DNA from: an uncultured delta proteobacterium | GTDB lineage: Bacteria > Desulfobacterota > Binatia > Binatales > Binataceae | Length of the DNA stretch: 64,000 nucleotides | Assembly (NCBI GenBank): GCA_963724765.1 | Contig: CAVRVY010000001.1 | Span: 64,001-128,000 of the forward strand | Direction: 5' to 3' | Part shown: one piece after another, positions 6,873 through 46,603 of the stretch | How the letters are laid out: each line of letters starts with the position of its first letter | Numbering within the stretch: position 1 is the first letter of the stretch | The notes under the pieces: model-generated | The model's input: the letters and a program-made list of their open reading frames with translations, nothing else | Told to the model about the DNA's origin: nothing | Databases searched by the model: none | Program-made: the position numbers and the translations under genes

Positions 6873-6890
6873 ACTTCTTCCTCTCTCTTC

Positions 6891-26846: not shown

Positions 26847-28244
26847 ATGGCGAAAGAAAGGAACGGGCAATCGCGGGCGCCTTGTGGCGGCGCCGATGCC
26901 GTCGTGAGCTCCATCGCCTCCACCGTCAAAGCTGGCCTCAAATCCGGCCCGGCGCCGAGCCGCGAAGCTGAACTGCTCATCTGCTGCGCCACTTCGGTTG
27001 CGACGCCAGAGCGCACGGCGCATCTGCGCGCGATCGTCGACGGGGGCGTCGATTGGCAATTGGCCACACACATGGCGTCGACGCAGGCGGTGATGCCACT
27101 GGTCTATCGCTACCTGACCTCGGAACTCGAGGCCGGGTTGCCGGCCGACGCGGCTCGCGGCCTGCGCCAGGCTTTCTACGGCAACTCGCTGCGCAACCTC
27201 CATCTCGCGCGCGAGCTGGTGCGGCTGACGGCGCTGCTCGAGCGGGGCGGTGTCGAGCCGCTGGCGCTCAAGGGTCCGGCGCTGGCGATGCAGGCCTATG
27301 GCGCCCTCGCGATGCGCCAGTTTACCGACCTTGACCTCCTGGTGCGGGAAAGCGAGGTCGAGCGCGCGGCCGAGATTCTTCTCAACGACGGCTACGCGCT
27401 ACGCGCAGGATGCGGGCTTGCCGACCTCGGCCGGACGGGCGCGTACGAAATCACGATGGGGCGGGCGGGCGTACTGACTGAAATCGATCTCCACTGGCGC
27501 CTCGTCCCGCGCTATTTTCCGCTCACGCTCGACGGCGAAGATCTGTGGCGGCGCGCGGTGCGGGTCGAGATCGAAGGCGCCGCCGTGCGCACCCTGGCGG
27601 CCGTCGACCATCTGCTCTATCTGTGCGCGCACGGAGCCAAGCACGGATGGCAGGCGCTCGGCGGGATTTGCGATCTGGCCGAACTGATACGCGCATCGTC
27701 GGGCATTTCACCGCAAACTTCGTCGCAAACTTCGTCGCAAACTTCGTCGCAAACTTCGTCGCAAACTTCGTCGCAAACTTCGTCGCAAACTTCGTCGATA
27801 GACTGGGGTGAGCTCTGCGCGCGAGCCGACCGCGCGGGTGCACGCCGGGCACTTGCACTCGGCGTGCTGCTCGCGCACGAGTTGCTCGACGCCGAGGCGC
27901 CGGTGGCCGTGCTCGAGACGGCCCGCCGCGAGCCCGCGGTCATGCGTGCCGCGCGCAGCTTCATCGGTTATGTGCGCGATCCGAGCGATGACGGCCCGGG
28001 GTTCTATCAACGATGGTCGGTGCCGCTCGGCGTCATCGCGGGGCCCGGGGCACGGTTACGTTACTTCACCGGGCGCGCGCTGTTGCCGAGCGCCGACGAT
28101 CGCGAATTTCTGCGGCTGCCACCGGCCCTCTATCCCCTGTACTATTTGCTGCGTCCGCTCAGGGTGGTTCTCAAGGAGGGCCCCGCCGCCGTACGCAGGC
28201 TGATGCGCTCGGCTCCGTGGCCGGCGGACCATTCATCGCGATGA
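26847..28244 (+). CDS. Nucleotidyltransferase (NTP_transf_5-like)
   Basis: LKGPALA..AYG...RQFTDLDLLV, EIDLHW, HGAKHGW...CDL, IDW. Confidence 0.88.
   Translation: MAKERNGQSRAPCGGADAVVSSIASTVKAGLKSGPAPSREAELLICCATSVATPERTAHLRAIVDGGVDWQLATHMASTQAVMPLVYRYLTSELEAGLPADAARGLRQAFYGNSLRNLHLARELVRLTALLERGGVEPLALKGPALAMQAYGALAMRQFTDLDLLVRESEVERAAEILLNDGYALRAGCGLADLGRTGAYEITMGRAGVLTEIDLHWRLVPRYFPLTLDGEDLWRRAVRVEIEGAAVRTLAAVDHLLYLCAHGAKHGWQALGGICDLAELIRASSGISPQTSSQTSSQTSSQTSSQTSSQTSSQTSSIDWGELCARADRAGARRALALGVLLAHELLDAEAPVAVLETARREPAVMRAARSFIGYVRDPSDDGPGFYQRWSVPLGVIAGPGARLRYFTGRALLPSADDREFLRLPPALYPLYYLLRPLRVVLKEGPAAVRRLMRSAPWPADHSSR
27712..27795 (+). repeat. Perfect 12-bp tandem repeat CGCAAACTTCGT x7, encoding (QTSS)7
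   Basis: Counted directly; in frame within the nucleotidyltransferase, just before the IDW motif. Confidence 0.97.
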
Positions 28245-30139
28245 AAAAGCCAATAAACGCCTTTATTCGTGCGCTGTTCGAGGTCGGCCGCCTGCGAATC
28301 GCAGGCGCCATCGGGCTGATGGTTCTCTTTTCGCTTAGCGAGGGCATCGGGATCGCAGTGCTGCTGCCGATCCTGCAGGCCTCCGGCTTCGACCTCGGCG
28401 CGCAGGGCGCGGTTGGCCGCTATGCTAACGCGGTGGCCGCTGCCTTCGAGGCCGTCGGCCTCCATCCGAGCCTGCTGCTGTTGTTGATGGTGTTCGCCGG
28501 CCTGGTCGGGGCGCGGGCGCTACTGGGACGCTGGCAGGTAGTCGCGATGGCCTCGGTGCAGCAGAATCTCGGCGCTGGGTTGCGCGAGCGCCTGTATCAC
28601 GGGATCGCCAACGCCAACTGGCTCGCGCTTTCGCGGATGCGCTCGTCGGACCTGGCCCATGCGCTGACGGCGGAGATTGAACGGGTCGAGACCGCCACCT
28701 ACGGAGCGCTGAGCCTCGCCTCAACGGTGTTGCTGTTCGTGCTTTATATAGGGATTGGCCTGGCGATTTCAGCGCCGATGACGGCGCTGGTGCTCGGTTG
28801 CGGAATCCTCCTGGTCGCCTTGCTGCGCGGACGCACGGCGCTGTTGCACGGCGCGGGCGCTACGCTTTCGGAGCGGACCAAGGGGCTGTACTCCGCCACG
28901 GTCGAGCATCTGCAGAGCCTCAAGGCGGCCAAGATGTACGGCGTACAGGAGCGCAACTTTGACTCCTACGCGACGCTCAGCCGCGAGGTCGCCGCCGCCA
29001 ACGTCAATATCGAGCGCCAGCAGGCCGCCACCGGTTCGCTGTTCGAGATCGGGTCGGTGGTAATCCTGGCCGCGGTGCTCTACGTCTCGATTCGGGTGCT
29101 GGGAGTTGCCCCATTCGCCGTGCTGCTGCTGTTGGCGATGTTCGCGCGGGTGATGCCGCGGGTCATGCAGTGCCATAACCTGTATCAGATGTTCATGCAT
29201 GAGCTGCCTGCGTTCGAAAACGTAGGGGGACTGACCGGGCGCTGCGCAGCGGTGGCCGAACCGGCGGAGGCTCCCGCACAGGCGCTCGAACTCGCTGATT
29301 CGCTCCGCATGGAGGCGGTCTCGTTCTCCTACCAGCGCGTGGACGGCCGAGCGCCGGCCGATCGGTCTGAACAGTCTCCGGTCGACCGCGCTCAGGACCA
29401 GTCCCGGCCGCCGCTCGCCGTGCACGATCTCGACCTCACCGTGCCCGTGGGCGAGGTGGTCGCGCTGGTCGGCCCGTCGGGTGCGGGCAAGAGCACGATT
29501 GCCGACCTGATGACGGGTCTGCTGATGCCCGAGTCGGGGTGCGTCACCGTCGATGGCGTCGCGCTGGACGAAACGCGCGCGCGTGCGTGGCGCGAGGAGG
29601 TGGGTTACGTTTCGCAGGACACCTACCTGTTTCACGACACGGTGCGCGCCAACCTGCTATGGGCGCGGACCGGCGCGAGTGAGGCCGAGCTGCGCGAGGC
29701 GCTCGGGCTGGCTGCGGCGGAGCAGTTCGTCGACGCGCTGGGGGCCGGGCTCGACACCGTGATCGGCGACCGCGGGGTGTCGATTTCGCACGGTGAGCGC
29801 CAGCGCCTGGCCCTCGCGCGCGCCCTGTTGCGCCGCCCGCGTCTGCTGATCCTGGACGAGGCGACCAACAGCCTCGACGCGCACAACGAGCAGCGGATCC
29901 TCGACACGATCGAACGGCTGCGTGGCGATCTCACCATCGTAATGATCGCCCATCGGATTGCCGCCGTGCGCCAGGCCGATCGGATCTACGTCGTGGATGG
30001 CGGCACGATCGTCGAGTCGGGAAGCTGGAACGATCTGTGCGCCCGTGAGCATGGGCGCTTTCGTGCGATGTGCGAAAGCCAGGGAATCGCGCCCGTTCCG
30101 CTGGCTCCGGCGCGTCCGCCGATCGCCCGCCGCGCCTGA
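28241..30139 (+). CDS. ABC exporter, fused TMD-NBD
   Basis: ATG overlaps the upstream stop; several TM helices, GPSGAGKS, ISHGERQR, ILDEAT, IAH. Confidence 0.93.
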   Translation: MKKPINAFIRALFEVGRLRIAGAIGLMVLFSLSEGIGIAVLLPILQASGFDLGAQGAVGRYANAVAAAFEAVGLHPSLLLLLMVFAGLVGARALLGRWQVVAMASVQQNLGAGLRERLYHGIANANWLALSRMRSSDLAHALTAEIERVETATYGALSLASTVLLFVLYIGIGLAISAPMTALVLGCGILLVALLRGRTALLHGAGATLSERTKGLYSATVEHLQSLKAAKMYGVQERNFDSYATLSREVAAANVNIERQQAATGSLFEIGSVVILAAVLYVSIRVLGVAPFAVLLLLAMFARVMPRVMQCHNLYQMFMHELPAFENVGGLTGRCAAVAEPAEAPAQALELADSLRMEAVSFSYQRVDGRAPADRSEQSPVDRAQDQSRPPLAVHDLDLTVPVGEVVALVGPSGAGKSTIADLMTGLLMPESGCVTVDGVALDETRARAWREEVGYVSQDTYLFHDTVRANLLWARTGASEAELREALGLAAAEQFVDALGAGLDTVIGDRGVSISHGERQRLALARALLRRPRLLILDEATNSLDAHNEQRILDTIERLRGDLTIVMIAHRIAAVRQADRIYVVDGGTIVESGSWNDLCAREHGRFRAMCESQGIAPVPLAPARPPIARRA

Positions 30140-30186
30140 GCGGCGCGGCCAGCCGCGAACATCCTGGCGCGGATCGGATTTCCCGG

Positions 30187-30240
30187 TGGTGCGAGAGGGG
30201 GGACTTGAACCCCCACGCCTTGCGGCACCGGATCCTAAGT
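30187..30240 (-). repeat. att site: 3' part of tRNA-Leu(TAG) with the original CCA
   Basis: 30190-30240 is identical to 46523-46573 (51 bp). Identity ends just past the anticodon loop; TGG (CCA on the minus strand) at 30187-30189. Confidence 0.95.
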
Positions 30241-30358
30241 ACTACTCCCGTACCTCCACGATCCATCGCCACCGATCACTATTCAACGCCATCAAGCACT
30301 TTCGCGCCGGTCGATGTTGCTCGATAAGCGCGCTCCTACCTATCGCGCTCGATAGTTC

Positions 30359-30376
30359 CGCCACAATTACGCCACA
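30359..30376 (+). repeat. Arm-type site CGCCACAATTACGCCACA, left copy
   Basis: Identical 18-mer at 46439-46456; both copies lie just inside the att sites. Confidence 0.8.
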
Positions 30377-30566
30377 GCGCAATAGCCATTCTGTCGGCCA
30401 TTCCGAACGTGACGCACTGGATATGGCATCCTCTGCGTCATCAAAAGACGTTGATTCTAAAGGGAAATTTGGCGCCTGTGGCTCAAGTGTGGCGCAATTT
30501 CACGACGCTCAACAATGGAATTTTGGGCATTTCGCCCATGAAAACCGGACTGAAAAGGAGGTCTAT

Positions 30567-31013
30567 ATGCGGGTTTGTAACAAGTCTGAGGCGTTCAAAC
30601 TGGCACGGCAACTCAACGACGATGGCGACGCGCCGCTCGATGACGCGACGCTCGATCGCTACTGGAACGATTACCGTATCGCAGAGTTGCCCGAGCCGTT
30701 GGATGCGATCGTTCTACAGTGCTTCGTCGCGCTGCCCGCGACAGTCGCGGTGCGGTTGATGCAGGTCGCCGCCTATCACGAGCCGGTGAACGGTGTCTTC
30801 GACGACAGCGTGGTAACTCAGGTGCTGAAGATGCGATCGGCAGGTGTGGAGGAGTGGCTGCTACTCGCGCAAAGCGGTTACTACATCGGCTTGGCTCAAC
30901 GCGAGATGTGCGGGTTCGATCTCGGCGCCGGGTTGCGCCGCATCGCGCGTTGCAGCCAGTTCCTCGTCGAATGGATCGAGGCGCATCGGTTTGCGCCGTT
31001 GCGCGCGCTGTAG
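30567..31013 (+). CDS. Hypothetical protein
   Basis: AAGGAGG RBS before ATG 30567; 148 aa; no motif recognised. Confidence 0.6.
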   Translation: MRVCNKSEAFKLARQLNDDGDAPLDDATLDRYWNDYRIAELPEPLDAIVLQCFVALPATVAVRLMQVAAYHEPVNGVFDDSVVTQVLKMRSAGVEEWLLLAQSGYYIGLAQREMCGFDLGAGLRRIARCSQFLVEWIEAHRFAPLRAL

Positions 31014-31565: not shown

Positions 31566-32012
31566 ATGAATCTCACATTGGACGCGATCCTCTCGGACGG
31601 CCTCGACGCCGCCGGAGAACTCGAACCGCACGCGATGCTCGCGCTCGCCATGAAGCTACAGGGCGCCGCTTCGATCCTCTTCGCGCGCGCGGTCGCCGCG
31701 CTGGCATCCACGGCTGCGAGTGCGACTACGGAGCGCGCGCCCAAGCCCGACAACCGATTAATCTCGATCAAGGACGCAGCGTTACGCATCAACAAACATC
31801 GAAGCTGGCTGGATCGCCACGGCCGCCGACTCGGCATCATGATATGCGATCCGACGACTGGCCGTGCGCTGGGATGCTCGGAGGCGGCAATTCGGCGCTT
31901 CGTCGAAGGAGGCGCAACCAACGCCCCACCACCACCACGCGCACACGCATCGTTCGTGAGCGTTGATGAATTGCGCGCCCAGGAACGTGAAAGCAGAGCG
32001 AGGAGGCAGTGA
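31566..32012 (+). CDS. Excisionase-like HTH protein (module 1)
   Basis: GAGGAGG RBS; LISIKDAALRINKHRSWL HTH; same architecture as 44486-44887; directly precedes the integrase. Confidence 0.6.
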   Translation: MNLTLDAILSDGLDAAGELEPHAMLALAMKLQGAASILFARAVAALASTAASATTERAPKPDNRLISIKDAALRINKHRSWLDRHGRRLGIMICDPTTGRALGCSEAAIRRFVEGGATNAPPPPRAHASFVSVDELRAQERESRARRQ

Positions 32013-32013
32013 T

Positions 32014-33321
32014 ATGGACAGCGACGAGTTGGACATCGCGCAAGTTCGTGAGCTGCTCGACGCGCTCGGCGACAGCGGCCCGAGTGATCCGCGCTATCGC
32101 CTCATTCGCGCGTGGGTGCTCGCGCACCGTCGCAAGGCGCGCGCACTCTGGCAGCGAGGCGATATCTGGTGGACGCGAATCTGGGTGCCGCGCGAGCACC
32201 GCGAATGGCGCGAAAGCACCGGCATCAGAGTGTCGGATGATCCCAACGGGCGCAAAGCGATGATCGTGGCGCGGCAGCGCATGGTCGATGTCGATAAGGG
32301 GAAACCCACGCCCGACGCTCAAACGACATACGCAGATTTGCGCGAACTGATCCTTCGCGACTATGAACTCAACGGCAAGAAGCGTAAAGCACTCCTCACC
32401 CGCCTGCTTCACCTCGATCCCTACTTCCGCGATTACAAGGCCGCGCGCATCACTTCGGCCGTCTTTGATCGCTATGCTACTGAACGCCACAACGCGGGCG
32501 CCGCCAACGGCAGCATCAACCGCGAGCGCGACGTACTCAATCGCATGTTCGTCCTGGGCGTGCGCGCGGGATTGAGTATCGTCGCGCCCTACTTTACGCG
32601 ATTGAAGGAAGCGCCGCCTCATGCTGGGTTCTTTGAGGCTAAGGAATTCGCCGCCGTACTCGCGCACCTTCCCAATTATCTACAACCGCCGATGCAGACT
32701 GCCTACCTGACCGGCTGGCGCCTAAATGAAGTGCTGACCCGCAAACCCGAGCACGTCGATCTCAACGCTGGCCCTGGTTGGCTACGACTCGATCCCGGTG
32801 AAAGCAAGACCGGTAAGGCGCGTATGTTTCCTCTCGCCGGCGGTTTGCGCGATCTCGTCGTCGAGCAACTCCGCGTCAGCGCCGAGCGCGGATCACCGTG
32901 GCTATTCCCATCGCGGTTGGCGCTGCTGGGCTACGATGACGGGCGTGCGCTCACGGCGAATGTGCGCTTTTATCGCGCCTGGCATGATGCGTGTGAAAAG
33001 GCCGGAGTGAAAGGACGTATTCCGCACGACTTTCGCCGCACCGCCTACCGGAACCTCTTACGCGCCGGAATCCCCAAGCCTATAGCGATGGCCTGGATCG
33101 GGCACGAGACGGATGCGATGGCGAAGCGCTACGCGATCATGGATGAGGGATTATTTGGCGAGTTTTCGACGCGCCTGACGAACGCCTATGGCGCGCTACC
33201 CATCACAGAGAACGCGATGGAGATTGCGCCGGAGGGTGTCGCGCTAGAGGGCGTCGCGAAGCTGCCCGAACTTGTCTGCCATGACGATGGGTTCCCATCC
33301 ACGTCCCTGATAGGGCGGTAG
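32014..33321 (+). CDS. Tyrosine recombinase/integrase 1
   Basis: TGWRLNE (R), ESKTG (K), HDFRR (HxxR), IGH, KRY (Y): catalytic set appears intact. Confidence 0.92.
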   Translation: MDSDELDIAQVRELLDALGDSGPSDPRYRLIRAWVLAHRRKARALWQRGDIWWTRIWVPREHREWRESTGIRVSDDPNGRKAMIVARQRMVDVDKGKPTPDAQTTYADLRELILRDYELNGKKRKALLTRLLHLDPYFRDYKAARITSAVFDRYATERHNAGAANGSINRERDVLNRMFVLGVRAGLSIVAPYFTRLKEAPPHAGFFEAKEFAAVLAHLPNYLQPPMQTAYLTGWRLNEVLTRKPEHVDLNAGPGWLRLDPGESKTGKARMFPLAGGLRDLVVEQLRVSAERGSPWLFPSRLALLGYDDGRALTANVRFYRAWHDACEKAGVKGRIPHDFRRTAYRNLLRAGIPKPIAMAWIGHETDAMAKRYAIMDEGLFGEFSTRLTNAYGALPITENAMEIAPEGVALEGVAKLPELVCHDDGFPSTSLIGR

Positions 33322-33543
33322 GTTGTCGCAAAGGAAACGACCGCAACGGACACGATAACGCCCTGGGGTCATCAGTCGAAGCGCGCGGGAAAGTGGTCGC
33401 CGTTGGGGCCTCGCTAGCCATTTGTCGCGATTTACTATGATCGCGTCACAGTGTCGCAATCTACGGAAAATCTTTGTCGCGAGACGAATATAGTATTGGT
33501 CTGCTTTTTGTGCGTGGTAATTTAACCATGAGGTGATCGAGAA

Positions 33544-34017
33544 ATGGATAATCAAACAGAGTCCGGGAAAAGCCCGGCAGACTTGGCGATTGCGGAAGTG
33601 GCAGGGATAGTCCGGGCGTTGCCGGACGACCTGACGCTGGAACAGCTTCAGGGCATCGTAGCCACGGTGGCGGACGCATTCAGCGTTGACCTGGAAGAGA
33701 TTGACGGGTCAGTGCGCGAGGGCGCGGACGAAGCCGCGAAAGAAGCGGCAGCGGAATCCCTCACAGAAGCGGCTCGCGAAGAAACCGACAACGCATATCT
33801 CGCCTACATGCATGAGCACTCAGAAGCGGCCATCGAGGCCGCGCTTGAGCCCGTGCGCGAGAAAGCCCGCGCGGCGGCGGACGCTGCCTTCGAGGAAGAG
33901 CAGGAAGCGGATCAAAAGCGCTACGACGCGGCTTACGCGGAAGCATATCGCGACGCCTACCGCGCCGGGTTGCTTGAGGACGACAAGCTCAAGCTCAATC
34001 GCCTTCTACACCAATAG
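33544..34017 (+). CDS. Acidic Ala/Glu-rich helical protein
   Basis: GAGGTG RBS; 157 aa, coiled-coil-like. Confidence 0.65.
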   Translation: MDNQTESGKSPADLAIAEVAGIVRALPDDLTLEQLQGIVATVADAFSVDLEEIDGSVREGADEAAKEAAAESLTEAAREETDNAYLAYMHEHSEAAIEAALEPVREKARAAADAAFEEEQEADQKRYDAAYAEAYRDAYRAGLLEDDKLKLNRLLHQ

Positions 34018-34284
34018 GACTTTGGTTAGGAGACGATCCTGCGCGTGTCGATCGGCTTAAGGTTGTCAGATAACCTTTTTGCCCGCGTCCTGATGATCGA
34101 TGCTGGTTAGCCTTGGCCTTCGTCGCAAGCACTGTAGAGGCGAGGCGCTGTGTGCTCGCTCGTGCTCCCCTCCGGTCCGCACGGCTCGCCATAAGCGATG
34201 TGGCGACACGAAGCGTGCGGAGCGTCGCGCGGGCGCTGAAGCACGGGGACTACCAACAGACTTGCGGAGCCACGGGGCGCCCCC

Positions 34285-35541
34285 TTAATTCGCGGACTTT
34301 TCCATTTGCTCGCAAGCGTCGCGCTCTTTGTCGCGTAGTCTGCGTAAATTCTCGATCCTCTCGGTCTTTTGCTCCGTGTCATACACGGCGTGAGTAGGAC
34401 GGCTTTCGGTCTCCGCTATTTCCGATGTCCATTTGCCCACGCCCGCCCAGCATTCCTTTAGCCGTTTGGCCCACAGCCCCTCTGCATGCTCGCGCTCTTC
34501 GTGCAAGTCGAGCTGCTGTGCTCTCCGTTGAGTGTCCTGTTGAATCTGCCAGGCTTCAGCCGAGCCGGGTTTTTCGACTTCCGTAACTGCGAAGTGACGT
34601 TCAGCCAATTTCTGTCCGTCCAAATAGAACCTGATTGTGTAGGTGCCGGGTTGAAAGGCGCCGCCTGAGTTGCTGCCGACCTTGCCGCTAAAGGTCACGG
34701 TGTCCTGGTCAGCGTTCACCGTCTCGAAGTCATCGACACTCCCAAGTATCTGTCCTTGAGGTCCGTAAAAAGTGGCGTGGAGGCGGTAGCGTTTGATGTT
34801 GGAATCCGGAGGCGAGGTGTTCCTAAAAAAAGTCTGCCAGTTCACAAAGAGGAGCTTAAATACATCAAACGTGCTGGCTGGGGCCGAGAGTGGAAGCCCG
34901 TATCTCGTGGTGTTTTGAAGGACGATGTTCGATAGCGTCAACGATGCATGAGTATTTGGTATGGCTCTGGCTATTGTCGCAGGGAGGGCGCTCTTCTTAT
35001 GGGCAGCTAAAGACGCAGAAGCGGCGGGTGCAACGCACGCAATCTTCGAATCGCCGATAATCTTAGCCGGATGGTCGCGATCCAGCGCTACGGAGGCCAT
35101 ACCGGCGCCCTTGACCACGATCCACGGCAGTATGTTCACTTGGATATATGCTGGGGGACTGCCACTTGAACCGCTCAGTATTTCTAGCGGCCACTGAAAA
35201 GAAAACTCCTCCCCCGGCCACAGCACTGGCGCGGTCGGCGCAACCGGTATGCCCCGATGTGCCACAGCACTGTCTCTCTCCATAATGAAGGCATCGTTCT
35301 TTGTGTATCCCTTGACTGTAAGCTGGAACTTCTCGGGCAGCGGTTTTGACGTTGCGTTTGCGACCCCGATTTTTATGCCGTGAGCGCTGTCGCACTCTGC
35401 CTCGATAACGCGGAATGCCGGCGTTTCTGGATCACTCGGCCGTTTTTCGGGTTTCGCGACTAACGCGCGGCCGAAGAGCACGAGCGCAATGCCCGCTAAC
35501 AGTGCGCACGCGACAACAGCGCTCAGGGTTCTAGGGTTCAC
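34285..35541 (-). CDS. Membrane-anchored exported protein with beta-rich domains and C-terminal coiled coil
   Basis: N-terminal TM helix, PGTYTIRFYLDG Ig-like end; lower GC than flanks. Confidence 0.7.
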   Translation of the reverse strand: MNPRTLSAVVACALLAGIALVLFGRALVAKPEKRPSDPETPAFRVIEAECDSAHGIKIGVANATSKPLPEKFQLTVKGYTKNDAFIMERDSAVAHRGIPVAPTAPVLWPGEEFSFQWPLEILSGSSGSPPAYIQVNILPWIVVKGAGMASVALDRDHPAKIIGDSKIACVAPAASASLAAHKKSALPATIARAIPNTHASLTLSNIVLQNTTRYGLPLSAPASTFDVFKLLFVNWQTFFRNTSPPDSNIKRYRLHATFYGPQGQILGSVDDFETVNADQDTVTFSGKVGSNSGGAFQPGTYTIRFYLDGQKLAERHFAVTEVEKPGSAEAWQIQQDTQRRAQQLDLHEEREHAEGLWAKRLKECWAGVGKWTSEIAETESRPTHAVYDTEQKTERIENLRRLRDKERDACEQMEKSAN

Positions 35542-35558
35542 GCATGCTCCAACTCTCG

Positions 35559-36539
35559 CTAAGACGATGCGGTCTTCCTGCGCCGCCCACTTAGTATCTG
35601 CTGCTTACGGCGATTCGTGCACCTGTCCGAGCACGACCGTTGACTTGAATGGCGGGCATAAAAGTAACGTCCGCAGCGCGGGTTTCGGCACACCCGTATG
35701 CGCTGCAAACCCGCGTCGCCCAAGTCCTCGAAGATCATTTGCAGTGCCGCGTAAGCGTGATCGATCCAGCTTTCTCCCGGCCAGTCGGGCGCTTCGTCGT
35801 CTTCATCTTGTGTGACGCGATGCTCGTGGGCGGCTATGTGGATAGTCAGACCAATCCTGCGCAAGAAGCCATAGAGCTGCCAGGCGTCGGGTCTGTCGCT
35901 TGCGATGAACCATGCCAAGACCGGATGTTGGGGTCCGGCGTTGGGTTTTTCCGCCCGCGCTTTGAAAACTCTGAGCATGTCCGCGAATCCGACGCTTCGT
36001 GCGAAGTCCTCGTAAAACTGCGTGCGTTCGACGGCGCGCTCGGCGGTCTCGCAATCGGTCGGGCGATTATTCGCAACGTCGGAAGCAGACCAGCGGATTC
36101 CACGCTCACTCAATTCGGTTTTGACTCTAAGATAATTGCCCTCAAACGACGATAACCCATCGCGCCCGATCCAGTTTGCGGCTTCGATGAAAGCCTTGAG
36201 CGCCGCCAGCCGGTTGCGGCGCTGCGCTCCCGTAAGCGTAGTAAGCGCGTCGCCAGTTAGGCGTTCGTTTCTCTCGCGGGCGAGCTTGCGGATAAGCGAC
36301 TGGCTAAAGGGGCCACCAAACGCGTCGGGCCAGTGCAGGGCGATATAGGCCAGTCGGGTGATTGGTAATGGGATCGTGTCTTTTGCGGCGGCGCTCGCAA
36401 CCAGTCTCTCAAAGGCGTCGGGATCGTAGCTCGCCAATACCGCATCGCAGAAGTCCGTGGCGGCTTGGCTACCGGGTTCGAGGCTTTGTTGTTCGCTGAA
36501 GCTGGTAGTTGGGGTTGATTCGTGACGATTAGTCATCAT
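35559..36539 (-). CDS. CGNR-type zinc-finger protein
   Basis: C-terminal RVCRNPRCGRYFY...SCSDRC; divergent from the AlpA-like gene. Confidence 0.75.
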   Translation of the reverse strand: MMTNRHESTPTTSFSEQQSLEPGSQAATDFCDAVLASYDPDAFERLVASAAAKDTIPLPITRLAYIALHWPDAFGGPFSQSLIRKLARERNERLTGDALTTLTGAQRRNRLAALKAFIEAANWIGRDGLSSFEGNYLRVKTELSERGIRWSASDVANNRPTDCETAERAVERTQFYEDFARSVGFADMLRVFKARAEKPNAGPQHPVLAWFIASDRPDAWQLYGFLRRIGLTIHIAAHEHRVTQDEDDEAPDWPGESWIDHAYAALQMIFEDLGDAGLQRIRVCRNPRCGRYFYARHSSQRSCSDRCTNRRKQQILSGRRRKTASS

Positions 36540-36620
36540 TGTCTACCAACTACAATATAGCATGAGAGGCAGTGAAATGCGCAGTACACGCGAGGTCGGC
36601 AACATCGATAAGGAGCATCA

Positions 36621-36822
36621 GATGGGAGAGATTCTAGATACGAAACAAGCTGCGGTTTTCCTGGGTCTCCGCCCCGGCACGTTGGCGGTTTGGCGGATGG
36701 AAGGCCGTGGTCCGGGTTACGTGAAGCTCGGGAAGCGAGTTGTCTACCGGCGCGATGCGCTGGAGCGGTTCCAGGCGGCACACACGATCGACCCCGAACG
36801 CGACCCGCAGCATGCCGCCTAA
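36621..36822 (+). CDS. AlpA/HTH_17 excisionase-like regulator
   Basis: AAGGAG RBS; LDTKQAAVFLGLRPGTLAVWRMEGRGPGYVKLGKRVVY. Confidence 0.9.
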
Positions 36823-37202
36823 CATGAATGAATTTTCGGTAGAGGTGCGATGCCACGGCTGTGGCGGCCGTGGCGATCGCCGACAACATGGAGAACCAGC
36901 TACGTGGAGACCCCCACAATATCATCTTCATTTGACAGACCAATACCCGAAGCTGACGCCTCCACATCGCGTCGCTGGCAGATCGAGACACCCACTGGCC
37001 GCCTAGAAGTCCTCGCGGACGACTGCAACGTCGGTGAGGCCGGTGTTCTTCACTTCAGCGACTATGGGCCGCTCGGCGAAATGGACGGGCGGCGCATCGT
37101 CATATGCGTCATCGGCCCGGCGGGATGGACGCGCTTAATCCCACCACCATCCGCTTTCGACGATGACGATGACGACGCAGCGGCTTCAGCGAGCGCACGA
37201 TC

Positions 37203-37703
37203 ATGAGCACGACGAGCACGCCGACTATCGCGCGGCCATCCACATCGATCGCGATCGATGCTGAGTGGTTCGAGCGTCTCGGCCGCCGCTATTTCTACGC
37301 GCACCGCGCATTCCCGCAGACCATCGCGCGCAGCAACCGCCAAGTGTCACTCAAAGTAGCCGCGATTAACTTCGCGCACTTCCGCGACCAGGGCGGACCC
37401 AATCAAACCCCGTGTGACCGCTACGGCGTCGATGCTGAAGTGCCGGCGCTCTTTGAACGTGAATTCCTGCGCCGGGCGACGCCCTCATTGATTCTCGACA
37501 TGCTCGGTGAGATCGAAGCGCTGCACAATGTCGTTTTGGATTTGGACCCGGCTTTTTGCTGGGAACCCAATGTTCGCCGATTCATGAACAAGTTGCGGCG
37601 TCATCCAGATTGGACCGCCAGCCCGCGCGACGAAGAATGTGCACGAGACGAGAGCGCCGAGCGCGACGATAGGTTAACCGTGGGCGGCGACGCGCATGCT
37701 TAA
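37203..37703 (+). CDS. Hypothetical protein
   Basis: 166-aa ORF overlapping the helicase start. Confidence 0.6.
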   Translation: MSTTSTPTIARPSTSIAIDAEWFERLGRRYFYAHRAFPQTIARSNRQVSLKVAAINFAHFRDQGGPNQTPCDRYGVDAEVPALFEREFLRRATPSLILDMLGEIEALHNVVLDLDPAFCWEPNVRRFMNKLRRHPDWTASPRDEECARDESAERDDRLTVGGDAHA

Positions 37704-38955
37704 CATCGACGCCGACTCGACCCCCGCGAAAATTGGTGCGCGTGATCGTAGGCTGCCATTGAGCGTATCGAGCGCCTACACCAAAGCCACACTGCGCGAC
37801 CTCGCCAAGTTCGAAGGCCGCACACTCGATCCCTCGATCGTCCGCCGCGCCGAATTGGCGCACGATCCCGCAGTGCGTGATGGCGGCGATCCTGCCGTGA
37901 AAGCCGATTTAACCGCGCCACCACGCGCGCAACTCGAATCAGCCTCACCGCCGCCAGCACCATCCGCCTTCTCATTTACGCCGCTGCGCGATCTTCTCGC
38001 CGAACAACCGCAACCAGAAAAATGGCTATGGGACGGGATACTGAGCGAAGGCGGCCTCTCGCTTTTGGCCGGTAAACCGAAAGCGGGCAAGTCAGTATTG
38101 GTTCGCAACTTGGCCATGTGCATCGCGCGCGGTATTCCATTCTGCAACCGCCCGACGCGCAAAGGCCGTGTTGTCTACTTAGCCTTCGAGGAGAGCCGCA
38201 ACGCCATCCGCCGCCACTTCGAGCTTATGAATGCGGACGGCAGCGAGGAGATCGTGATCCACGTCGGCCCGAAGTTCGGCAGCGACGCCGATGATCCCGG
38301 TCGCCTACTGCTCAACATCGTAAGTACCTATCGCCCGGCGCTTATAGCCATCGACACATTCGCCAAGTTGTTTCGCATCCGAGACATCAACAAAGATTAC
38401 ACCGCAGTCTCAAAAGCACTCGAAATCCCGATGCATATCGGACGCGAGGGCAAGACGCACATCCTACTCACGCATCACGCGGGTAAAGGTGAAAACACCG
38501 AGCCCATCGATCAGATCATCGGTACGACCGCACTCGCGGGCGCCGTCGATACGATCCTCATCCTCGATCGCAGCCGCAACCTTGGCGGCGACGCTTCCGT
38601 TCTTACGTCCATTCAGCGCTACGGCGATGAACCCGATCCGCTATCTCTGATCCTCGATGAACGGACGGAAATTTTCGCTCCCAACGCCACCGACGCCGCC
38701 CAGACGCGAACACGCGAGGACGCGAAGATCGCCGAGATCGCCGCCTTCATTCGCGGCCACGCCAACCGCGCCACCGAGACGGAAATCCGCCAGTCTATTT
38801 CGGGCCGCGTCGAAACAATCCGCCGCCTCCTACGCCAAGCGGTAGCAACCGGGCGCATTCTCACGTCGGGCGGTGCCAAGAAGGGCGATCCCACGCTCTA
38901 TCGCCTCCCTGACACCTCACAACCCGAAACGCGGGAACAGAATAGAGAAAAGTAA
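37696..38955 (+). CDS. RepA/AAA_25-type replicative helicase
   Basis: WLWDGIL, GKPKAGKS, VVYLAFEE, IAIDT, LTHHAGK, IGTTALAGAVD; C-terminal winged-helix-like region. Confidence 0.88.
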   Translation: MLNIDADSTPAKIGARDRRLPLSVSSAYTKATLRDLAKFEGRTLDPSIVRRAELAHDPAVRDGGDPAVKADLTAPPRAQLESASPPPAPSAFSFTPLRDLLAEQPQPEKWLWDGILSEGGLSLLAGKPKAGKSVLVRNLAMCIARGIPFCNRPTRKGRVVYLAFEESRNAIRRHFELMNADGSEEIVIHVGPKFGSDADDPGRLLLNIVSTYRPALIAIDTFAKLFRIRDINKDYTAVSKALEIPMHIGREGKTHILLTHHAGKGENTEPIDQIIGTTALAGAVDTILILDRSRNLGGDASVLTSIQRYGDEPDPLSLILDERTEIFAPNATDAAQTRTREDAKIAEIAAFIRGHANRATETEIRQSISGRVETIRRLLRQAVATGRILTSGGAKKGDPTLYRLPDTSQPETREQNREK

Positions 38956-40314: not shown

Positions 40315-40348
40315 CCCGCATCGCGAATTGAAGGTGAGGTAATCAACA

Positions 40349-42523
40349 ATGAGTGAAGGAATCGAAGTACGCATCAGCCCAAGTGCTGGCGCTGGCGGCA
40401 AGCGCCTTGCCGAGTCGCCGAGTTTTGCGTCCGACAAGCTCACCGGCACGCAGCAGCGATTCGCCGCGCCCGGCGCCGACGCACGCTCGCAGATCGCCGT
40501 CGAGCAGAAGCTCGTCGCCACGCAAACCGCGCTGGTCGCCGAGATCAAGTCGCTGCGCAAGGCCATGCAGGGCACCGCCGCCGGGTCGGCCGAGCGCACG
40601 GCGCTGAAGGCGCAGATCGACGAGCGCCTCGCGCAGCAAAAGAGCAACTTAAGCGGAGCCTACAACACAGGCGCGGTGGCGCGAGATGCAAAAGCGCTCA
40701 CCGCCGGCAAGGGCGTGGCGATGATGCCCTCCGCGCGCGTACTTGCTCAATCACTCGTCAGTGCCAGCCGCGAGACGCTCCAGGGCAATCCGCTCGGAGC
40801 GCTTAGGCATGCCGTCAGCGGTTTCAACGCCGGACGCTCTCTCGTTGGTGCCGGTGGAGGTGCCGCCGTAGCCGAGGGCGCCGAAGGTGCCGCCGAAGCA
40901 GCTGGAGGTGCCGGTATCGGCACGATGCTCGCCGCCGTCGGCGTCGCTGGCGCCGGCGCCCTGGCCTACAAGGCGTGGGAGGACCCGAACGCCGCCAAGG
41001 CCGTCCTCGGCGCGCCGCTCGCGATCATGGAGGCGAAAAAATATGGCCCGCTGGAGGAGTCGCGCCAGGGCGCCGGCTATCGTGCCGCGCGTGAATTCGG
41101 CGAGAGCGGGCAGTCGATGATCGGATCAACCACTGGCGGCCGTTGGAGTGCACTCGGCATATCGCCTAGCGACGCGACGCAAACGGTTTCGGCGATGCGC
41201 GAGTTGGGCGGCTCGAAGTACGTATCGAATCAAGAAGCATACGCGGGTGCAAAATTGGGTACGTATTTGGGATTTTCGCCCGAGCAAACCGCGCAAGTCG
41301 GCGGCGCGGCCGGGCGCCTCGGTGTCAGTCCCGAAACTGCGATCCGCACCATCGCCGCCGGTGTTGAGCGCGGCAACCAGCAAGGCCGCCAATTCGAGGT
41401 CGCATCGGCCAGTCTCGACTACCTCAAGCAGATCGCCACGTCGGCGGCCGTCAGCGGCACGACCGGTTTAACGGCGATCACGAACCTCACCTCGATATTG
41501 GCCAAAACGGGCATCGCGGCGTTCCAGGGCGCGGGCGGCGTCAGCGCCATCGGCGGCATCGAAGCCGCGCACTCAGCCGACGATATTTTCGGCGTCAAAG
41601 CCATGGGCGCCGCCTTTGCGCAATACGGCGAAGCTTCGATGCTCCGCGGCGCGCACGGCAACATTGCCAAAGCCGAGGAAATCCGCCAGGGCGGTTTCGG
41701 CGGACGCTTTTCGTCGATCTATGCGTCGTCGATCCATGGCGAGATCGCGATGGCGCGCAAGTTCGGCCCTCTCGGGTACGAAGCACTCGAAGAGCAGTGG
41801 GGCATGCCGATCGGTTCCTACATCGATCCGCGCACCGGCAAGCCCGTTAGCGTCAACAGCGCCCTCGACGATCTCGACCAGGCGATCCAAAGCGGCGACT
41901 ATCTGAAGGCCGCGAAGATCCAAAATAGTTTATTAGACAGCGGCTCGAAGAACATTTCACCGATGGCCGCCGCGAGTGCCGGCCTCGCTACGGGAGGCGC
42001 GCTCACCGGCGAAGCGACCCAGCGGACCTATGCCGCTGGTGCACGCCTCGAAACTGCCGGCTTGTCCCTGTTGCGCCGCCACCTCGACGACAAAGCGGGC
42101 GCCTCCGCGCTCGACTACTTATCGAGCACATTGGGTCCGTCGAAGCCGACGCCGGCGCCGGGTCTAGCCTACGTGCCCGAACCGCCGCTGCCGCCTGGCG
42201 GCCTTCCGACACCCCTGGCGACGCCTTTCGCGACCCCCGATGCGCTCCCGACGCCCGGCGCGCCCGCCTATGCCGCCCCAGCCGCAGGTGCCCCGATCGC
42301 GGGCGCGGGCGCGCTCAGCGGGTTAGGCGATAGGTTAGGCGATAGCGTCTCGGGCGGCGTGCTGCTGATCGCCGGATTGCTCGAACGCTTAATCGCCGCC
42401 GTGCAGGGCGGTAGTGCGCTCGGGGCACCATCGCCTGCGCCGACGCCCGCCGCGCCCGCGCCCACGCCCGCGCACGGCCCAATCGCGCCGACCGCCTCAA
42501 CCCCGAAATCGTCGCGCCACTAG
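40349..42523 (+). CDS. Tape-measure-like protein (724 aa)
   Basis: GAGGT RBS; N-terminal coiled coil, Gly/Ala-rich hydrophobic segment (GIGTMLAAVGVAGAGALAYKAW), long amphipathic helical middle, Pro-rich C-terminus. Confidence 0.6.
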   Translation: MSEGIEVRISPSAGAGGKRLAESPSFASDKLTGTQQRFAAPGADARSQIAVEQKLVATQTALVAEIKSLRKAMQGTAAGSAERTALKAQIDERLAQQKSNLSGAYNTGAVARDAKALTAGKGVAMMPSARVLAQSLVSASRETLQGNPLGALRHAVSGFNAGRSLVGAGGGAAVAEGAEGAAEAAGGAGIGTMLAAVGVAGAGALAYKAWEDPNAAKAVLGAPLAIMEAKKYGPLEESRQGAGYRAAREFGESGQSMIGSTTGGRWSALGISPSDATQTVSAMRELGGSKYVSNQEAYAGAKLGTYLGFSPEQTAQVGGAAGRLGVSPETAIRTIAAGVERGNQQGRQFEVASASLDYLKQIATSAAVSGTTGLTAITNLTSILAKTGIAAFQGAGGVSAIGGIEAAHSADDIFGVKAMGAAFAQYGEASMLRGAHGNIAKAEEIRQGGFGGRFSSIYASSIHGEIAMARKFGPLGYEALEEQWGMPIGSYIDPRTGKPVSVNSALDDLDQAIQSGDYLKAAKIQNSLLDSGSKNISPMAAASAGLATGGALTGEATQRTYAAGARLETAGLSLLRRHLDDKAGASALDYLSSTLGPSKPTPAPGLAYVPEPPLPPGGLPTPLATPFATPDALPTPGAPAYAAPAAGAPIAGAGALSGLGDRLGDSVSGGVLLIAGLLERLIAAVQGGSALGAPSPAPTPAAPAPTPAHGPIAPTASTPKSSRH

Positions 42524-42595: not shown

Positions 42596-42808
42596 ATGAG
42601 CGACAACTCACCCAAAGCTACGCCCTGGGCCAAGTACCGCGACGCGCGCATCGCCCATGCCCGCGAGCTGCAACAACTCGCCGCCGCCTATCGCGATGCG
42701 CCGCGCTGCGCGAAGTGTCAGATTGTGATTTCCTTGCGCCCCGACGAGGCGTGCTGCATCGCCGACTGCCCGCTGGCGCCATCCACGATGGACCGCAGCG
42801 CCCGATGA
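42596..42808 (+). CDS. Small Cys-rich protein
   Basis: GAGG RBS; CAKC...CCIADCP. Confidence 0.5.
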   Translation: MSDNSPKATPWAKYRDARIAHARELQQLAAAYRDAPRCAKCQIVISLRPDEACCIADCPLAPSTMDRSAR

Positions 42809-42967: not shown

Positions 42968-43819
42968 TTATAAGGCGCGCCAAATCCTTCCCTGCTCCTC
43001 CCACTGGTTATAGGCGATCGTCGGAATGCCATAGCGCGCGCGCACGCTGGGTGCCACCTGCGCCAACGCGCGCATCGCAGCATCGAGGTTTACGCCGCCC
43101 AACCGCGTTTCCGTACCCGCCGCGTCGTAATTGAGCAGAATATTCGGATCGATCTGCTCGTCCATCATCGCGGCGTGCAAGCGGCTCTTGACGCTGTTAA
43201 AGCTTTTGAGCAACGCGAGCGGACTGAGACTACGGCCGCCGAAAGACTTCGACTGTGTATAGGCATCGCTGTCCATGCCCGGCCTCACCGTGCGCCGCGC
43301 AACTCGGTCGCCGCCGATCCGGCTTCGGCCCTCGCCTTGGCCCTCGCCGAGCTCCACTTCATCTTCATCAGTGGGCTCGACATATTTTTGGCGGTTGAAC
43401 GGCGTGATCTCGCTATCGGCGTGCGCACCAGGGAAGCGAATCTTCGAGGGACGGCCGCTAACCAACATTTCGTGAATCATGTCGGCGTCGGCCTCCAAGT
43501 AGTCGAAATCATCGTCGAGCGCCTGGATGCCCGCCCACTCGCGGTTGGACTCGCGAATATCCTTGCGTCGTGCTCCCTCTGCGCGTCGATCAAAGGCGTC
43601 GGCGTTCGCTTCCATGTAGTCTTTACTGTCGCTCATCTCGCGCACGCTTTGGCTACGGGCGCGCTTCGATTTCACGAGCGCATTGAGATCGTCAACAGCT
43701 TCGGCGAATGTCATTTGAACCTCATTGTGGGGAGTGGGAGTGACGCGGTAGAACCGGCCGTTGAGGAAGTCTCGTACGATGCCCGCGATCCTCATATTGG
43801 AAGTATAACGCTGTTCCAC
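42968..43819 (-). CDS. Acidic hypothetical protein with repeated KS motifs (scaffold-like?)
   Basis: 283-aa ORF; true start may be the downstream ATG (MTFAEAV); contains LVKS, SKSF, LLKSF, SVKS. Confidence 0.6.
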   Translation of the reverse strand: MEQRYTSNMRIAGIVRDFLNGRFYRVTPTPHNEVQMTFAEAVDDLNALVKSKRARSQSVREMSDSKDYMEANADAFDRRAEGARRKDIRESNREWAGIQALDDDFDYLEADADMIHEMLVSGRPSKIRFPGAHADSEITPFNRQKYVEPTDEDEVELGEGQGEGRSRIGGDRVARRTVRPGMDSDAYTQSKSFGGRSLSPLALLKSFNSVKSRLHAAMMDEQIDPNILLNYDAAGTETRLGGVNLDAAMRALAQVAPSVRARYGIPTIAYNQWEEQGRIWRAL

Positions 43820-43861
43820 AGTTAAATGCTATGCTCACGGCAGCGAGGCGAGCAGCGAAAA

Positions 43862-44305
43862 ATGGCCAACCCCAGCAATTTGATCCCGTTCCAGTTCAAA
43901 AAGGGCCAATCGGGCAATCCCAACGGCCGCCCCTCCGACCGCGACGCCGTCGCCCTCGCCATCAAATCGACCCGCGACGGCCTCGAACTGGTCGAGACGC
44001 TTGTCGATCTGATGCGTCACGCGAAGGCGGAAAAGACGCGGTTGGCCGCGACCTGCGAGTTGTGGGATCGCATCTATGGCCGCGTCCCGGCCGGCGAGCG
44101 CCCGTCGCTATTCGGCGCGCTCCAGGGCGTAACCGGGGTAACCTTCGCCGCCAGCTTCGGCCCGCGCCGGGGCGAAGTCGAAGCCAAGGACGCCGCTGTC
44201 GTAGAAGTTGCGGCCATCGTCGAAGCCGACTCCCATCGCGTCGATATGGACGCGCCTGACGACGCCGCAGACGACGCTGAGACACCCGAGACGCCCGTCG
44301 AATAG
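43862..44305 (+). CDS. DUF5681-type / small-terminase-like protein
   Basis: MANPSNLIPFQFKKGQSGNPNGRP, then RLAATCELWDRIYGR and an acidic tail. Confidence 0.7.
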   Translation: MANPSNLIPFQFKKGQSGNPNGRPSDRDAVALAIKSTRDGLELVETLVDLMRHAKAEKTRLAATCELWDRIYGRVPAGERPSLFGALQGVTGVTFAASFGPRRGEVEAKDAAVVEVAAIVEADSHRVDMDAPDDAADDAETPETPVE

Positions 44306-44485: not shown

Positions 44486-44887
44486 GTGCAAGTCTCGCCA
44501 CATCACAACGGCGCTCCGCTCGACGCGCCGCTCACCCGCGACTCGCCGACGCTATCGCTCGACGCGATCGCATCCGCGCCGTCGCCGACCGAGGCGTTGT
44601 CGCGGTTGTCGCCCGATGCGCTCGCGGTGCTGTCGGGCCGGTGCGCGACCATCCAGGCAGCGATCCAGCTCGCGATCATCACGCGCGCGGCCGCGCTAAC
44701 CGACCACGCCAACGCCAACGGTTCCGCGCGCATGCTTAGCGCCGATGAAGCCTGCGCCATCCTGAAACGCCCGAGGCGCTGGCTCTATGACCACGCGAAG
44801 CGCATGCCCTGGATCAAGCGCCTCAGCCGCAAGTCGCTTCTCGTCGATGAGTCGATGATGATGCGCTGGATCGCTTCCCGCCACTAG
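44486..44887 (+). CDS. Excisionase-like HTH protein (module 2)
   Basis: MLSADEACAILKRPRRWLYDHAKRMPWIKRLSRKSLLVDESMMMRWI. Confidence 0.75.
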   Translation: MQVSPHHNGAPLDAPLTRDSPTLSLDAIASAPSPTEALSRLSPDALAVLSGRCATIQAAIQLAIITRAAALTDHANANGSARMLSADEACAILKRPRRWLYDHAKRMPWIKRLSRKSLLVDESMMMRWIASRH

Positions 44888-45193: not shown

Positions 45194-46411
45194 ATGGAGA
45201 CGAAAGCGACTGACAGCAACGTGATCGACAGCAAGGCGACAGCGCAGGGGCAGGCGAAGGAGCGGCAGGCGAAGGGCAGGGCGCGCGGTCTAGGCGCCGT
45301 CTACCTGCGCGGCGGCACCTACTGGATCGCCTACCACCACAACGGCCGGCGCATCCGCGAATCCGCGCACTCGATCAAAGAATCCGACGCCGTGCGCCTC
45401 CTGAAGCGCCGCTACGCCGAAGCCCAGAGCGGCCGTCCGATCGGCCCGCAAATCGAGCGCACCGCGCTCAAATCTCTCACCGGGATGCTGCTCGACGACT
45501 ACCGCGCCAACTCGCGCCGCTCTCTGGATCGCGCCGAAGACGCGGTTACCCATCTCCACGGCTTCTTTGGCGAGGACCGGCGCGCAATCGGCATCACGGC
45601 CGATGCGATTGTCGCCTATCAGGCTCAGCGCCAGCGCGAATCGTGGAACAACCGGCCGGTCGCCGCCGCCACGATCAACTATGAGGTCGCGATGCTCCGG
45701 CGCGCCTTCCGTCTCGGCGCGCGCGCCGGCAAGGTCAGCGTGCGGCCGGAGTTTCCGATGCTCAACGTCGATAACGCCCGCAAAGGTTTCTTCGAGCCGG
45801 ACCAGCACCGTGCGGTGCTCGCGTACCTCCCGCATTACCTGCGCCCGGTTGTTCAAGCCGCTTACATCACGGGATGGAGAACGCAGAGCGAGCTATTGAC
45901 CCGGCAGTGGCGTCACGTCGATCTCGACGCCGGCTGGTTGCGCCTCGATCCCGGTGAGTCCAAGAACGGCGAGGGTCGGATGTTCCCGCTCACGCCCGAG
46001 TTGCGCGCGATCCTCCAGGCGCAGCGCGATCACGTCCGCACGATCGAGCGCGCAACCGAGAAGATCGTTCCCTGGGTGTTCCCGCACGACGACGGCTCGC
46101 CCATCCTCGATTTCCGCTATTCGTGGGCCAAGGCGTGCCGACTCGCGGGCGTGCCCGGACGACTCGTTCATGATTTCAGAAGGACCGCGGTGCGAAACTT
46201 GGAGAGGGCGGGCGTTCCTCGCTCAGCGGCGATGGCGATCACCGGCCACCGCACCGCGACCGTCTACCAACGCTATGCGATCGTCGATGAGGGGATGATG
46301 CGCGAGGCTGCCGACAAGCTGGCCATCCTCCACCGCGCCGGTGCCGAAGCGAGCGCTCCGAGCGCCACACCCAGCAACGGCCGCGTCCTACCGCTCACGA
46401 TCACGCGCTGA
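45194..46411 (+). CDS. Tyrosine integrase 2 (att-proximal)
   Basis: TGWR..SE, ESKNG, HDFRR, TGH, QRY; next to the arm sites and tRNA-Leu. Confidence 0.95.
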   Translation: METKATDSNVIDSKATAQGQAKERQAKGRARGLGAVYLRGGTYWIAYHHNGRRIRESAHSIKESDAVRLLKRRYAEAQSGRPIGPQIERTALKSLTGMLLDDYRANSRRSLDRAEDAVTHLHGFFGEDRRAIGITADAIVAYQAQRQRESWNNRPVAAATINYEVAMLRRAFRLGARAGKVSVRPEFPMLNVDNARKGFFEPDQHRAVLAYLPHYLRPVVQAAYITGWRTQSELLTRQWRHVDLDAGWLRLDPGESKNGEGRMFPLTPELRAILQAQRDHVRTIERATEKIVPWVFPHDDGSPILDFRYSWAKACRLAGVPGRLVHDFRRTAVRNLERAGVPRSAAMAITGHRTATVYQRYAIVDEGMMREAADKLAILHRAGAEASAPSATPSNGRVLPLTITR

Positions 46412-46438: not shown

Positions 46439-46456
46439 CGCCACAATTACGCCACA
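46439..46456 (+). repeat. Arm-type site CGCCACAATTACGCCACA, right copy
   Basis: Identical to 30359-30376. Confidence 0.8.
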
Positions 46457-46522: not shown

Positions 46523-46603
46523 TGCGAGAGGGGGGACTTGAACCCCCACGCCTTGCGGCACCGGATCCTAAGTCCGGCGCGTCTGCCATTCCGCCACTCT
46601 CGC
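46523..46603 (-). tRNA. tRNA-Leu(TAG), complete, CCA not encoded
   Basis: Full cloverleaf with long variable arm: GCGAGAG...CCGGA CT TAG GA TCCGG...GGGGGTTCAAGTCCCCC CTCTCGC A. Confidence 0.97.

Follow-up and report, generated by a model that had tools for sequence, protein, structure and literature searches.

A possible satellite-type island in a Binatales genome carries a gene with a core resembling that of Herelleviridae tape measure proteins

Introduction

What would a phage-type tape measure protein (TMP) do in a mobile island in which no other part of a tail is recognised? This question is raised by an open reading frame (ORF) at 40349-42523 of a 64,000-nt stretch of DNA (the window; contig CAVRVY010000001.1, positions 64,001 to 128,000) from an uncultured delta proteobacterium of the order Binatales (assembly GCA_963724765.1). 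The original prediction, made from the letters of the window and the translations of its ORFs, had described the product of this frame, here called P0001, as an orphan and shortened TMP resembling those of SPO1/Twort-like phages, in a satellite that might build short tails of its own or interfere with those of a helper.

The demonstration that satellite-encoded TMPs function is very recent and concerns PLE11 of Vibrio cholerae; in a few other satellites they are predicted. According to the PLE11 report, this element encodes its own TMP, tail assembly chaperone and baseplate hub (BhuB), with which it replaces the TMP, chaperone and hub of ICP1, building chimeric tails that are 10 nm shorter; the same report lists other satellites with putative tmp genes (PMC12987554), and a TMP has also been reported for the EPIP satellites (PMC12822802). 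Since satellite TMPs are already published, one in the island described here would not be categorically new.

The tape-measure-like gene and its family

The existence of homologues establishes the 724-aa frame as a genuine gene rather than an accident of high-GC DNA; the source genome (G000) holds two further tape-measure-like copies, paralogues of P0001. The ATG is preceded, at a distance of 9 nt, by a Shine-Dalgarno-like GAAGGTGAGG (40330-40339). Seven homologues were returned by a word-indexed search of 5.8 billion proteins, and a family-profile search of 1.84 billion representative proteins gave 36 matches, 22 of them at E <= 1e-10; the full-length relatives have 735-770 aa and 33-61% identity. 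The family is very rare, with a strong match in one of 164 other genomes of the order and none in 400 other genomes sampled from the class. Six further matches from the genome search across the order were weak (E 1e-4 to 9e-4), in short frames interrupted by in-frame stops, and were discounted as noise. No match to P0001 was found among phage records (tblastn), PADLOC models or PDB sequences, and no genomic locus of the family and of the SLT-bearing relatives described below was confirmed in IMG/VR, species-representative genomes or JGI metagenomes.

Two AlphaFold2 models of P0001 were made. The first, from seven sequences, had a mean predicted local distance difference test score (pLDDT) of 43.8 and was too poor for structure search; the second, from a 22-sequence alignment, reached a pLDDT of 73-92 across most of residues 240-535, with three 10-residue blocks dipping to 59-67. 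Long N-terminal helices occupy residues 43-107 (pLDDT 84-96 in the second model) and are followed by a hydrophobic segment rich in Gly and Ala (residues 161-212, 62% G+A) and by a middle part that is all-helical in both models (DSSP) and contains LTSILAKTGIAAFQGAGGVSAIGGI at residues 380-404 (41486-41560). The C-terminal part has two Pro-rich stretches, at residues 596-655 (30% P) and 687-724 (26% P), with a second hydrophobic helix (~656-686) between them, and the Kyte-Doolittle peaks begin near residues 184 and 666. The coiled-coil N-terminus, Gly/Ala-rich segment, helical middle with LTSILAKTGIAAFQGAGGVSAIGGI and Pro-rich tail on which the original prediction was built are each present. The Pfam scan also agrees with it in finding neither a lysin domain nor any other domain in P0001; SLT or phage lysozyme domains are present in its closest relatives from outside the family. 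A long, nearly all-helical protein with hydrophobic segments, as seen by DSSP of both models and by hydropathy, is what would be expected of a TMP.

A core shared with Herelleviridae tape measure proteins

Among the 1.84 billion representatives, the distant matches of the family profile cover profile positions ~272-424 only. Ten of these distant relatives were scanned, and seven have a C-terminal lytic domain (six SLT, one Phage_lysozyme2); the SLT/lysozyme-bearing metagenomic relatives are P0028, P0029, P0031, P0034, P0037, P0038 and P0039. The phrog_13572 model matched six of the ten over exactly the stretch aligned to the family profile (best E 6.3e-11), and phrog_1047 matched four. When the N-terminal 412 residues of P0029 were compared with phage records (tblastn), a gene of Exiguobacterium phage vB_EalM-132 was matched at E 2e-5; the other 16 of the 17 records, at E 0.7-1, are no evidence alone. 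This 883-aa gene comes after the sheath, tube and two chaperone genes, and Staphylococcus phage JDF86 has a 1410-aa gene at the same place, after its tube and chaperone-position genes, such genes carrying a chaperone annotation only in the Exiguobacterium phage record. Because these two post-tube genes match phrog_13572 and phrog_1047 (E 1e-163, 5.3e-260), the two PHROGs represent the Herelleviridae TMPs, the first SPO1 gp11.2-like and the second Twort/K-like TmpC.

Profile-profile comparison with hhalign connects the P0001 family to these TMPs step by step. An alignment of the family (A1) matched an alignment of four SLT-bearing relatives (A2) at 97.6% (E 4.2e-12, 172 columns), and the latter matched the core of seven Herelleviridae TMPs (A4) at 96.1% (E 2.8e-9). 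The Herelleviridae core was also matched, over residues 268-463 of the query, by a merged alignment of 22 sequences with P0001 as its head sequence (A5), at 97.5% (E 5.3e-12). With the same profile, the negative controls scored 0.2% (lambda gpH), 0.04% (the ORF at the TMP position of a prophage in the source genome) and 0.05% (an unrelated island protein); lambda gpH, tried as a relative in the form of a single sequence, had no similarity. The shared core lies around the motifs ...GR..E... and ...LQG..G......D, and the LQG..G segment, by which the original prediction had likened P0001 to SPO1/Twort-like TMPs, aligns with the Herelleviridae TMP core. We have fair confidence that the core of P0001 is TMP-derived and remotely homologous to that of the Herelleviridae TMPs. 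By the same comparisons, the Herelleviridae TMP core has distant relatives far outside that phage family, which current Pfam and PHROG models miss.

The structural searches point in the same direction. In the second model, the core residues 268-463 have a pLDDT of 59-91, and Foldseek against BFVD gave five matches at E <= 0.001. Among the 50 BFVD matches listed, 27 are informatively named, as tape measure (15), minor tail (7), tail lysin or autolysin (2) and other proteins (3), so that the viral matches are mainly TMPs, as the original prediction would have them; those listed include Bacillus phage Shanette, Brochothrix phage A9 and two Staphylococcus phages. Against PDB, nothing was found at E <= 0.001, the only matches being designed helical repeats. 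In the ESM Atlas, the three closest clusters are viral and 15 of the 30 matches belong to a set in which PF10145 PhageMin_Tail occurs commonly, which we take as a lead only.

Beyond the core, P0001 shares with the Herelleviridae TMPs the all-helical build with hydrophobic segments and, in one sister island described below, the type of downstream neighbour. Unlike them, it lacks a lysin domain and recognisable upstream chaperones and lies outside a tail gene cluster. The claim that it is shortened holds in plain length, since the seven Herelleviridae TMPs (883-1410 aa) exceed P0001 by 159-686 aa, but those proteins have extra C-terminal parts. The SLT/lysozyme-bearing relatives have the core domain in common with P0001 and, by eye, the same N-terminal order of a short strand motif, long helices and a Gly-rich hydrophobic stretch; at the C-terminus they have a lytic transglycosylase or phage lysozyme domain, where P0001 has its Pro-rich stretches.

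A bounded island with diverged sisters

The gene lies in an island of 16,383 bp. Its attachment (att) sites, attL (30191-30240) and attR (46524-46573), are identical copies of the 3′ 50 nt of a tRNA-Leu gene, and their 45-nt core has exactly two matches in the window and none in 100 shuffles. The 18-nt CGCCACAATTACGCCACA is repeated exactly, a short way in from either end (30359-30376 and 46439-46456), with a third, inverted copy with three mismatches at 30477-30494; these repeats are possible integrase arm sites. Two features expected of a satellite are seen, namely an integrase with bounded att sites and an own replication gene, since the AAA_25 ATPase is likely, from its family match, to be the replication protein of the island. 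The integrases, att sites, AAA_25 gene and DUF5681 motif are all compatible with the satellite setting that had been proposed.

Capsid, portal, terminase large subunit, tube, sheath and baseplate genes were not recognised with Pfam and PHROGs in the 29 ORFs of the window that were scanned, ~20 of them in the island. The description of P0001 as an orphan stands in this sense; most island ORFs match nothing, and hidden virion genes are possible. This gene content is also what might be expected if P0001 were a membrane or envelope protein for island transfer or DNA entry, a TMP-derived domain having been reused in a non-virion apparatus: the protein has two hydrophobic helices with Pro-rich linkers, no virion gene is recognised alongside, and no TMP model matches it directly. 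Such a role is improbable in our view, given that tblastn against 72,556 plasmid records found no relative, that Pfam and NCBIfam scans of the island revealed no relaxase, coupling protein or type IV secretion gene, and that viral tail proteins come closest to P0001 in sequence, structure and language-model features.

The gene set and its order recur in three islands of the source genome, at protein identities of only 33-75%. Island B, on contig C1, measures 18.9 kb and ends in a 58-nt repeat of tRNA-Leu(caa), and two of the three co-resident islands thus lie at different tRNA-Leu genes. The third copy, on contig C3 (island C), has part of the shared gene order, with its tape-measure-like gene spread over several frames; no tRNA was found beside it in the 20 kb examined. 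Outside the source genome, G152, of another genus of the same family, has a tape-measure-like gene in two frames adjoining helix-turn-helix (HTH) and integrase genes. A related island in genome G153 has the 283-aa, DUF5681 and AAA_25 genes, a 512-aa beta-rich protein and a hub-like gene; no tape-measure-like gene is present on its contig, which stops there.

The copies bear on whether the islands are the relic of a myovirus-like prophage tail module, in which the tape-measure-like gene would be a decaying leftover without a present role. The frame is disrupted in two of the five genomic copies, those of island C and G152, the family is very rare, tube, sheath and baseplate genes are not recognised in the island, and a hub-like gene is present in island B and absent from the island of the window. 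In opposition to this, full-length frames of 724-770 aa have stayed intact in several sources, at 33-61% identity, the gene holds the same place in three diverged islands, and its ribosome-binding site is good, indicating long-term selection on the coding frame. We consider decay without a role unlikely.

In island B, the 562-aa ORF directly after the tape-measure-like gene matches phrog_1015, 'tail protein with lysin activity' (E 1.6e-14), and aligns with the N-terminus of the post-TMP gene of seven Herelleviridae (hhalign 97.2%, E 3.2e-11). This order, tape-measure-like and then hub-like, is independent support for an origin from a tail module. It also bears on whether P0001 acts as a decoy tape measure that enters or blocks the tail assembly of an infecting phage and protects the population, the island being transferred or not. 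A family of tail assembly interference systems has reportedly been described (PMC11364771), and the island of the window has a tape-measure-like gene without the rest of a tail. Satellites and islands do carry defences against tail assembly, among them Rta of PLE11, which targets the helper TMP (PMC12987554). The known examples, however, are small dedicated proteins and not full-length TMPs; the hub-like partner in island B fits building better than blocking; and a PADLOC scan of 19 window ORFs and three island B ORFs found no defence model, the single match being a weak one to AAA_25. Blocking is, on this evidence, an account to which we give little weight.

A proposed satellite that supplies its own tape measure

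The reading that we tentatively favour, and hold to be quite possible, is that this is a satellite-type island supplying its own TMP, devoid of a lysin domain, as PLE11 does. When a helper myovirus grows in the cell, the island would excise and replicate, and its DNA would be packaged; the island TMP would replace that of the helper within the helper tube and baseplate, and the resulting tails would be chimeric. It is plausible that the island is a satellite, that P0001 would enter tails and that its entry would have this effect. In the PLE11 report, a TMP difference of 95 residues is expected to shorten tails by 10-15 nm (PMC12987554); at this ratio, 724 residues would correspond, very roughly and if all of them count, to ~75-115 nm.

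Like PLE11, the present island is a mobile island that has no tube or sheath of its own and carries a TMP-type gene, and the PLE11 hub gene has a counterpart in one sister island, B. Unlike PLE11, it has no recognised chaperone, its replication and packaging genes are of the AAA_25 and DUF5681 types, and it is known here from its genes alone. The EPIP satellites of Mycolicibacterium and the cf-PICIs also have a TMP or putative tmp gene; EPIPs and cf-PICIs additionally encode capsid or connector proteins and EPIPs a serine integrase, and none of these was recognised in this island (PMC12822802; PMC12987554). A broader and more doubtful proposal is that the islands form a new family of tail-hijacking satellites of soil bacteria, unrelated to P4, PICI, cf-PICI and PLE, which carry a fragment of a tail module (a TMP and, in some copies, a hub-like or fibre-like gene) with the SPO1/Twort-like TMP and post-TMP genes as nearest known relatives, each of the three copies perhaps being matched to a different helper. 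If the island family is a satellite, tail hijacking would extend to an unrelated, very rare type of element in soil bacteria. This copy would then be a minimal case, with the TMP its only recognisable tail gene, and for that reason a simple system for asking what replacing the tape measure alone achieves.

A number of results weigh against the satellite reading. The lack of any TMP profile match had been named in advance as grounds for abandoning the prediction, and direct scans of P0001 against Pfam, PHROGs and NCBIfam did return no family; the link to TMPs exists only via intermediates and profile-profile comparison. The homology spans ~195 of the 724 residues by way of unannotated metagenomic proteins, and the direct comparison of the family alignment with the Herelleviridae core, over the same columns, reached only 64% (E 6.3e-5). 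The TM-scores of the BFVD matches are low (0.11-0.24), which can be expected of long helical proteins but is weak all the same. The phrog_13572 model found nothing in the whole genome even at E <= 1. In the island of the window there is no hub-like gene, and two of the genomic copies of the tape-measure-like gene are broken, as described above. The DUF5681 match of the 159-aa protein is a 20-residue N-terminal motif only. No credible excision junction was found in the metagenome contigs of four DNA runs from soil and sediment (two studies), which carry short identical island pieces and three listed but untrusted joints with sides of 21-30 letters and are uninformative on excision; no RNA run was listed with the island. 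No helper phage was identified; a prophage on contig C2 of the source genome was considered, and its TMP-position ORF is unrelated to P0001, which neither supports nor excludes this prophage as helper.

The small ORFs upstream of the gene, for which a resemblance to tail assembly chaperones had been raised as a possibility, count on the same side. Small ORFs 1 and 2 reached 0.1% in all four hhalign comparisons with the two Herelleviridae chaperone alignments, a test of low power, made with alignments of three sequences of a diverse group of proteins. Seen from small ORF 1, small ORF 2 is shifted to the -1 frame in this island and the C3 copy, and in island B the two share a frame, so a conserved programmed frameshift is not indicated, and that possibility found no backing.

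Other features of the island and the source genome

The features of the island are collected in Table 1.

Table 1 Features of the 16.4-kb island, in order of position in the window
Feature	Position	Strand	Remarks
attL, directly repeated 3′ 50 nt of tRNA-Leu	30191..30240	.	left end of the island
Conserved left-end gene	30500..31013	+	the C-terminal end of mechanical ORF 29958-31013; identities of 63% (164 aa, island B left-end ORF) and 59% (94 aa, island C); no family match
148-aa protein, weakly excisionase/regulator-like	31566..32012	+	phrog_66 at E 0.0068 only; 61% identity to an island B ORF
Second tyrosine integrase	31963..33321	+	Phage_integrase E 4.6e-18; phrog_1 E 5.8e-33; in this island copy only; 37% identity to the island B integrase
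166-aa conserved protein	37203..37703	+	directly 5′ of the helicase; 69% identity to an island B ORF; no family match
AAA_25 (RepA/DnaB-like) ATPase	37696..38955	+	PF13481 E 3.3e-29; phrog_906 DNA polymerase/primase E 1.9e-24, helicase part
Small ORF 1, 110 aa	39204..39536	+	51% identity to an island B ORF; in all three islands
Small ORF 2, 140 aa	39539..39961	+	in all three islands
Small ORF 3, 117 aa	39961..40314	+	Cys4 zinc-ribbon-like motif; in all three islands; no family match
Tape-measure-like gene (P0001)	40349..42523	+	724 aa, ATG start
Core, probably homologous to the Herelleviridae TMP core	41150..41737	+	residues 268-463, by hhalign; holds LTSILAKTGIAAFQGAGGVSAIGGI
70-aa Cys-rich protein	42596..42808	+	common to all three islands
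283-aa conserved protein	42968..43819	-	46-53% identity to island B and C ORFs, 51% to a G153 ORF
159-aa DUF5681-motif protein	43826..44305	+	PF18932 E 9.2e-7, residues 23-42
HTH_17 (excisionase/AlpA-like) protein	44486..44887	+	PF12728 E 2.7e-4, below the Pfam cut-off; kept in islands B and C and genome G152
Tyrosine integrase adjoining the tRNA	45194..46411	+	Phage_integrase E 6.1e-13; phrog_1 E 4.4e-41
tRNA-Leu(tag)	46523..46603	-	3′ 50 nt = attR

The mechanical ORF at the left end runs through attL, and the start of the left-end gene is therefore uncertain. The island C copy of small ORF 1 was placed via its match to the island B ORF and has 27% identity to that of the window. At the 283-aa protein, the real gene is on the minus strand and not the overlapping plus-strand ORF at 43175-43825; the protein has no family match and no usable match in the ESM Atlas. 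The region at 31963-36991 contains the second integrase and minus-strand cargo, namely a 418-aa protein whose N-terminus has a hydrophobic segment (34285-35541) and a 326-aa protein whose C-terminus is a CGNR zinc finger (35559-36539); the second of these proteins also occurs in the C3 island.

The 159-aa DUF5681-motif protein is a candidate small-terminase-like protein by its motif. The DUF5681 family can be assigned to the small-terminase position because both full-length DUF5681 genes found elsewhere in the source genome lie between ParB-methylase and terminase large subunit genes. The similarity of the 159-aa protein to one full-length DUF5681 protein covers 39 aa only (E 2e-5), the N-terminal motif alone being common to them. 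The two cassettes of ParB-N6/N4 methylase, DUF5681 and terminase large subunit genes are on contig C3, at 122544-126084 (-) and 141416-144741 (+), 17 kb apart (loci L032 and L033); they lie beside serine recombinase and transposase genes, and no capsid gene was recognised nearby.

Island B further contains a HigB-like toxin gene with an HTH_3 gene, likely a toxin-antitoxin pair (positions 6087-7009 of locus L008), and three adjoining zinc-ribbon ORFs (2941-4208 of the same locus). The 512-aa beta-rich protein of the G153 island, P0042, is encoded on the minus strand just before the hub-like gene (2335-3873 of locus L038); it has no PHROG match and by eye looks like a fibre or receptor-binding protein. 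The prophage on contig C2 is a Mu/P2-like myovirus at ~232000-250000 (L039), with genes for the Mu gpT head protein, Gp36, Gp37, sheath, GpU, GPD hub, V spike, gp25, Baseplate_J, Tail_P2_I and fibre. To the left of the island, seven head-to-tail copies of the 12-nt TCGTCGCAAACT were observed at 27684-27803, inside an NTP_transf_5 ORF at 26847-28244.

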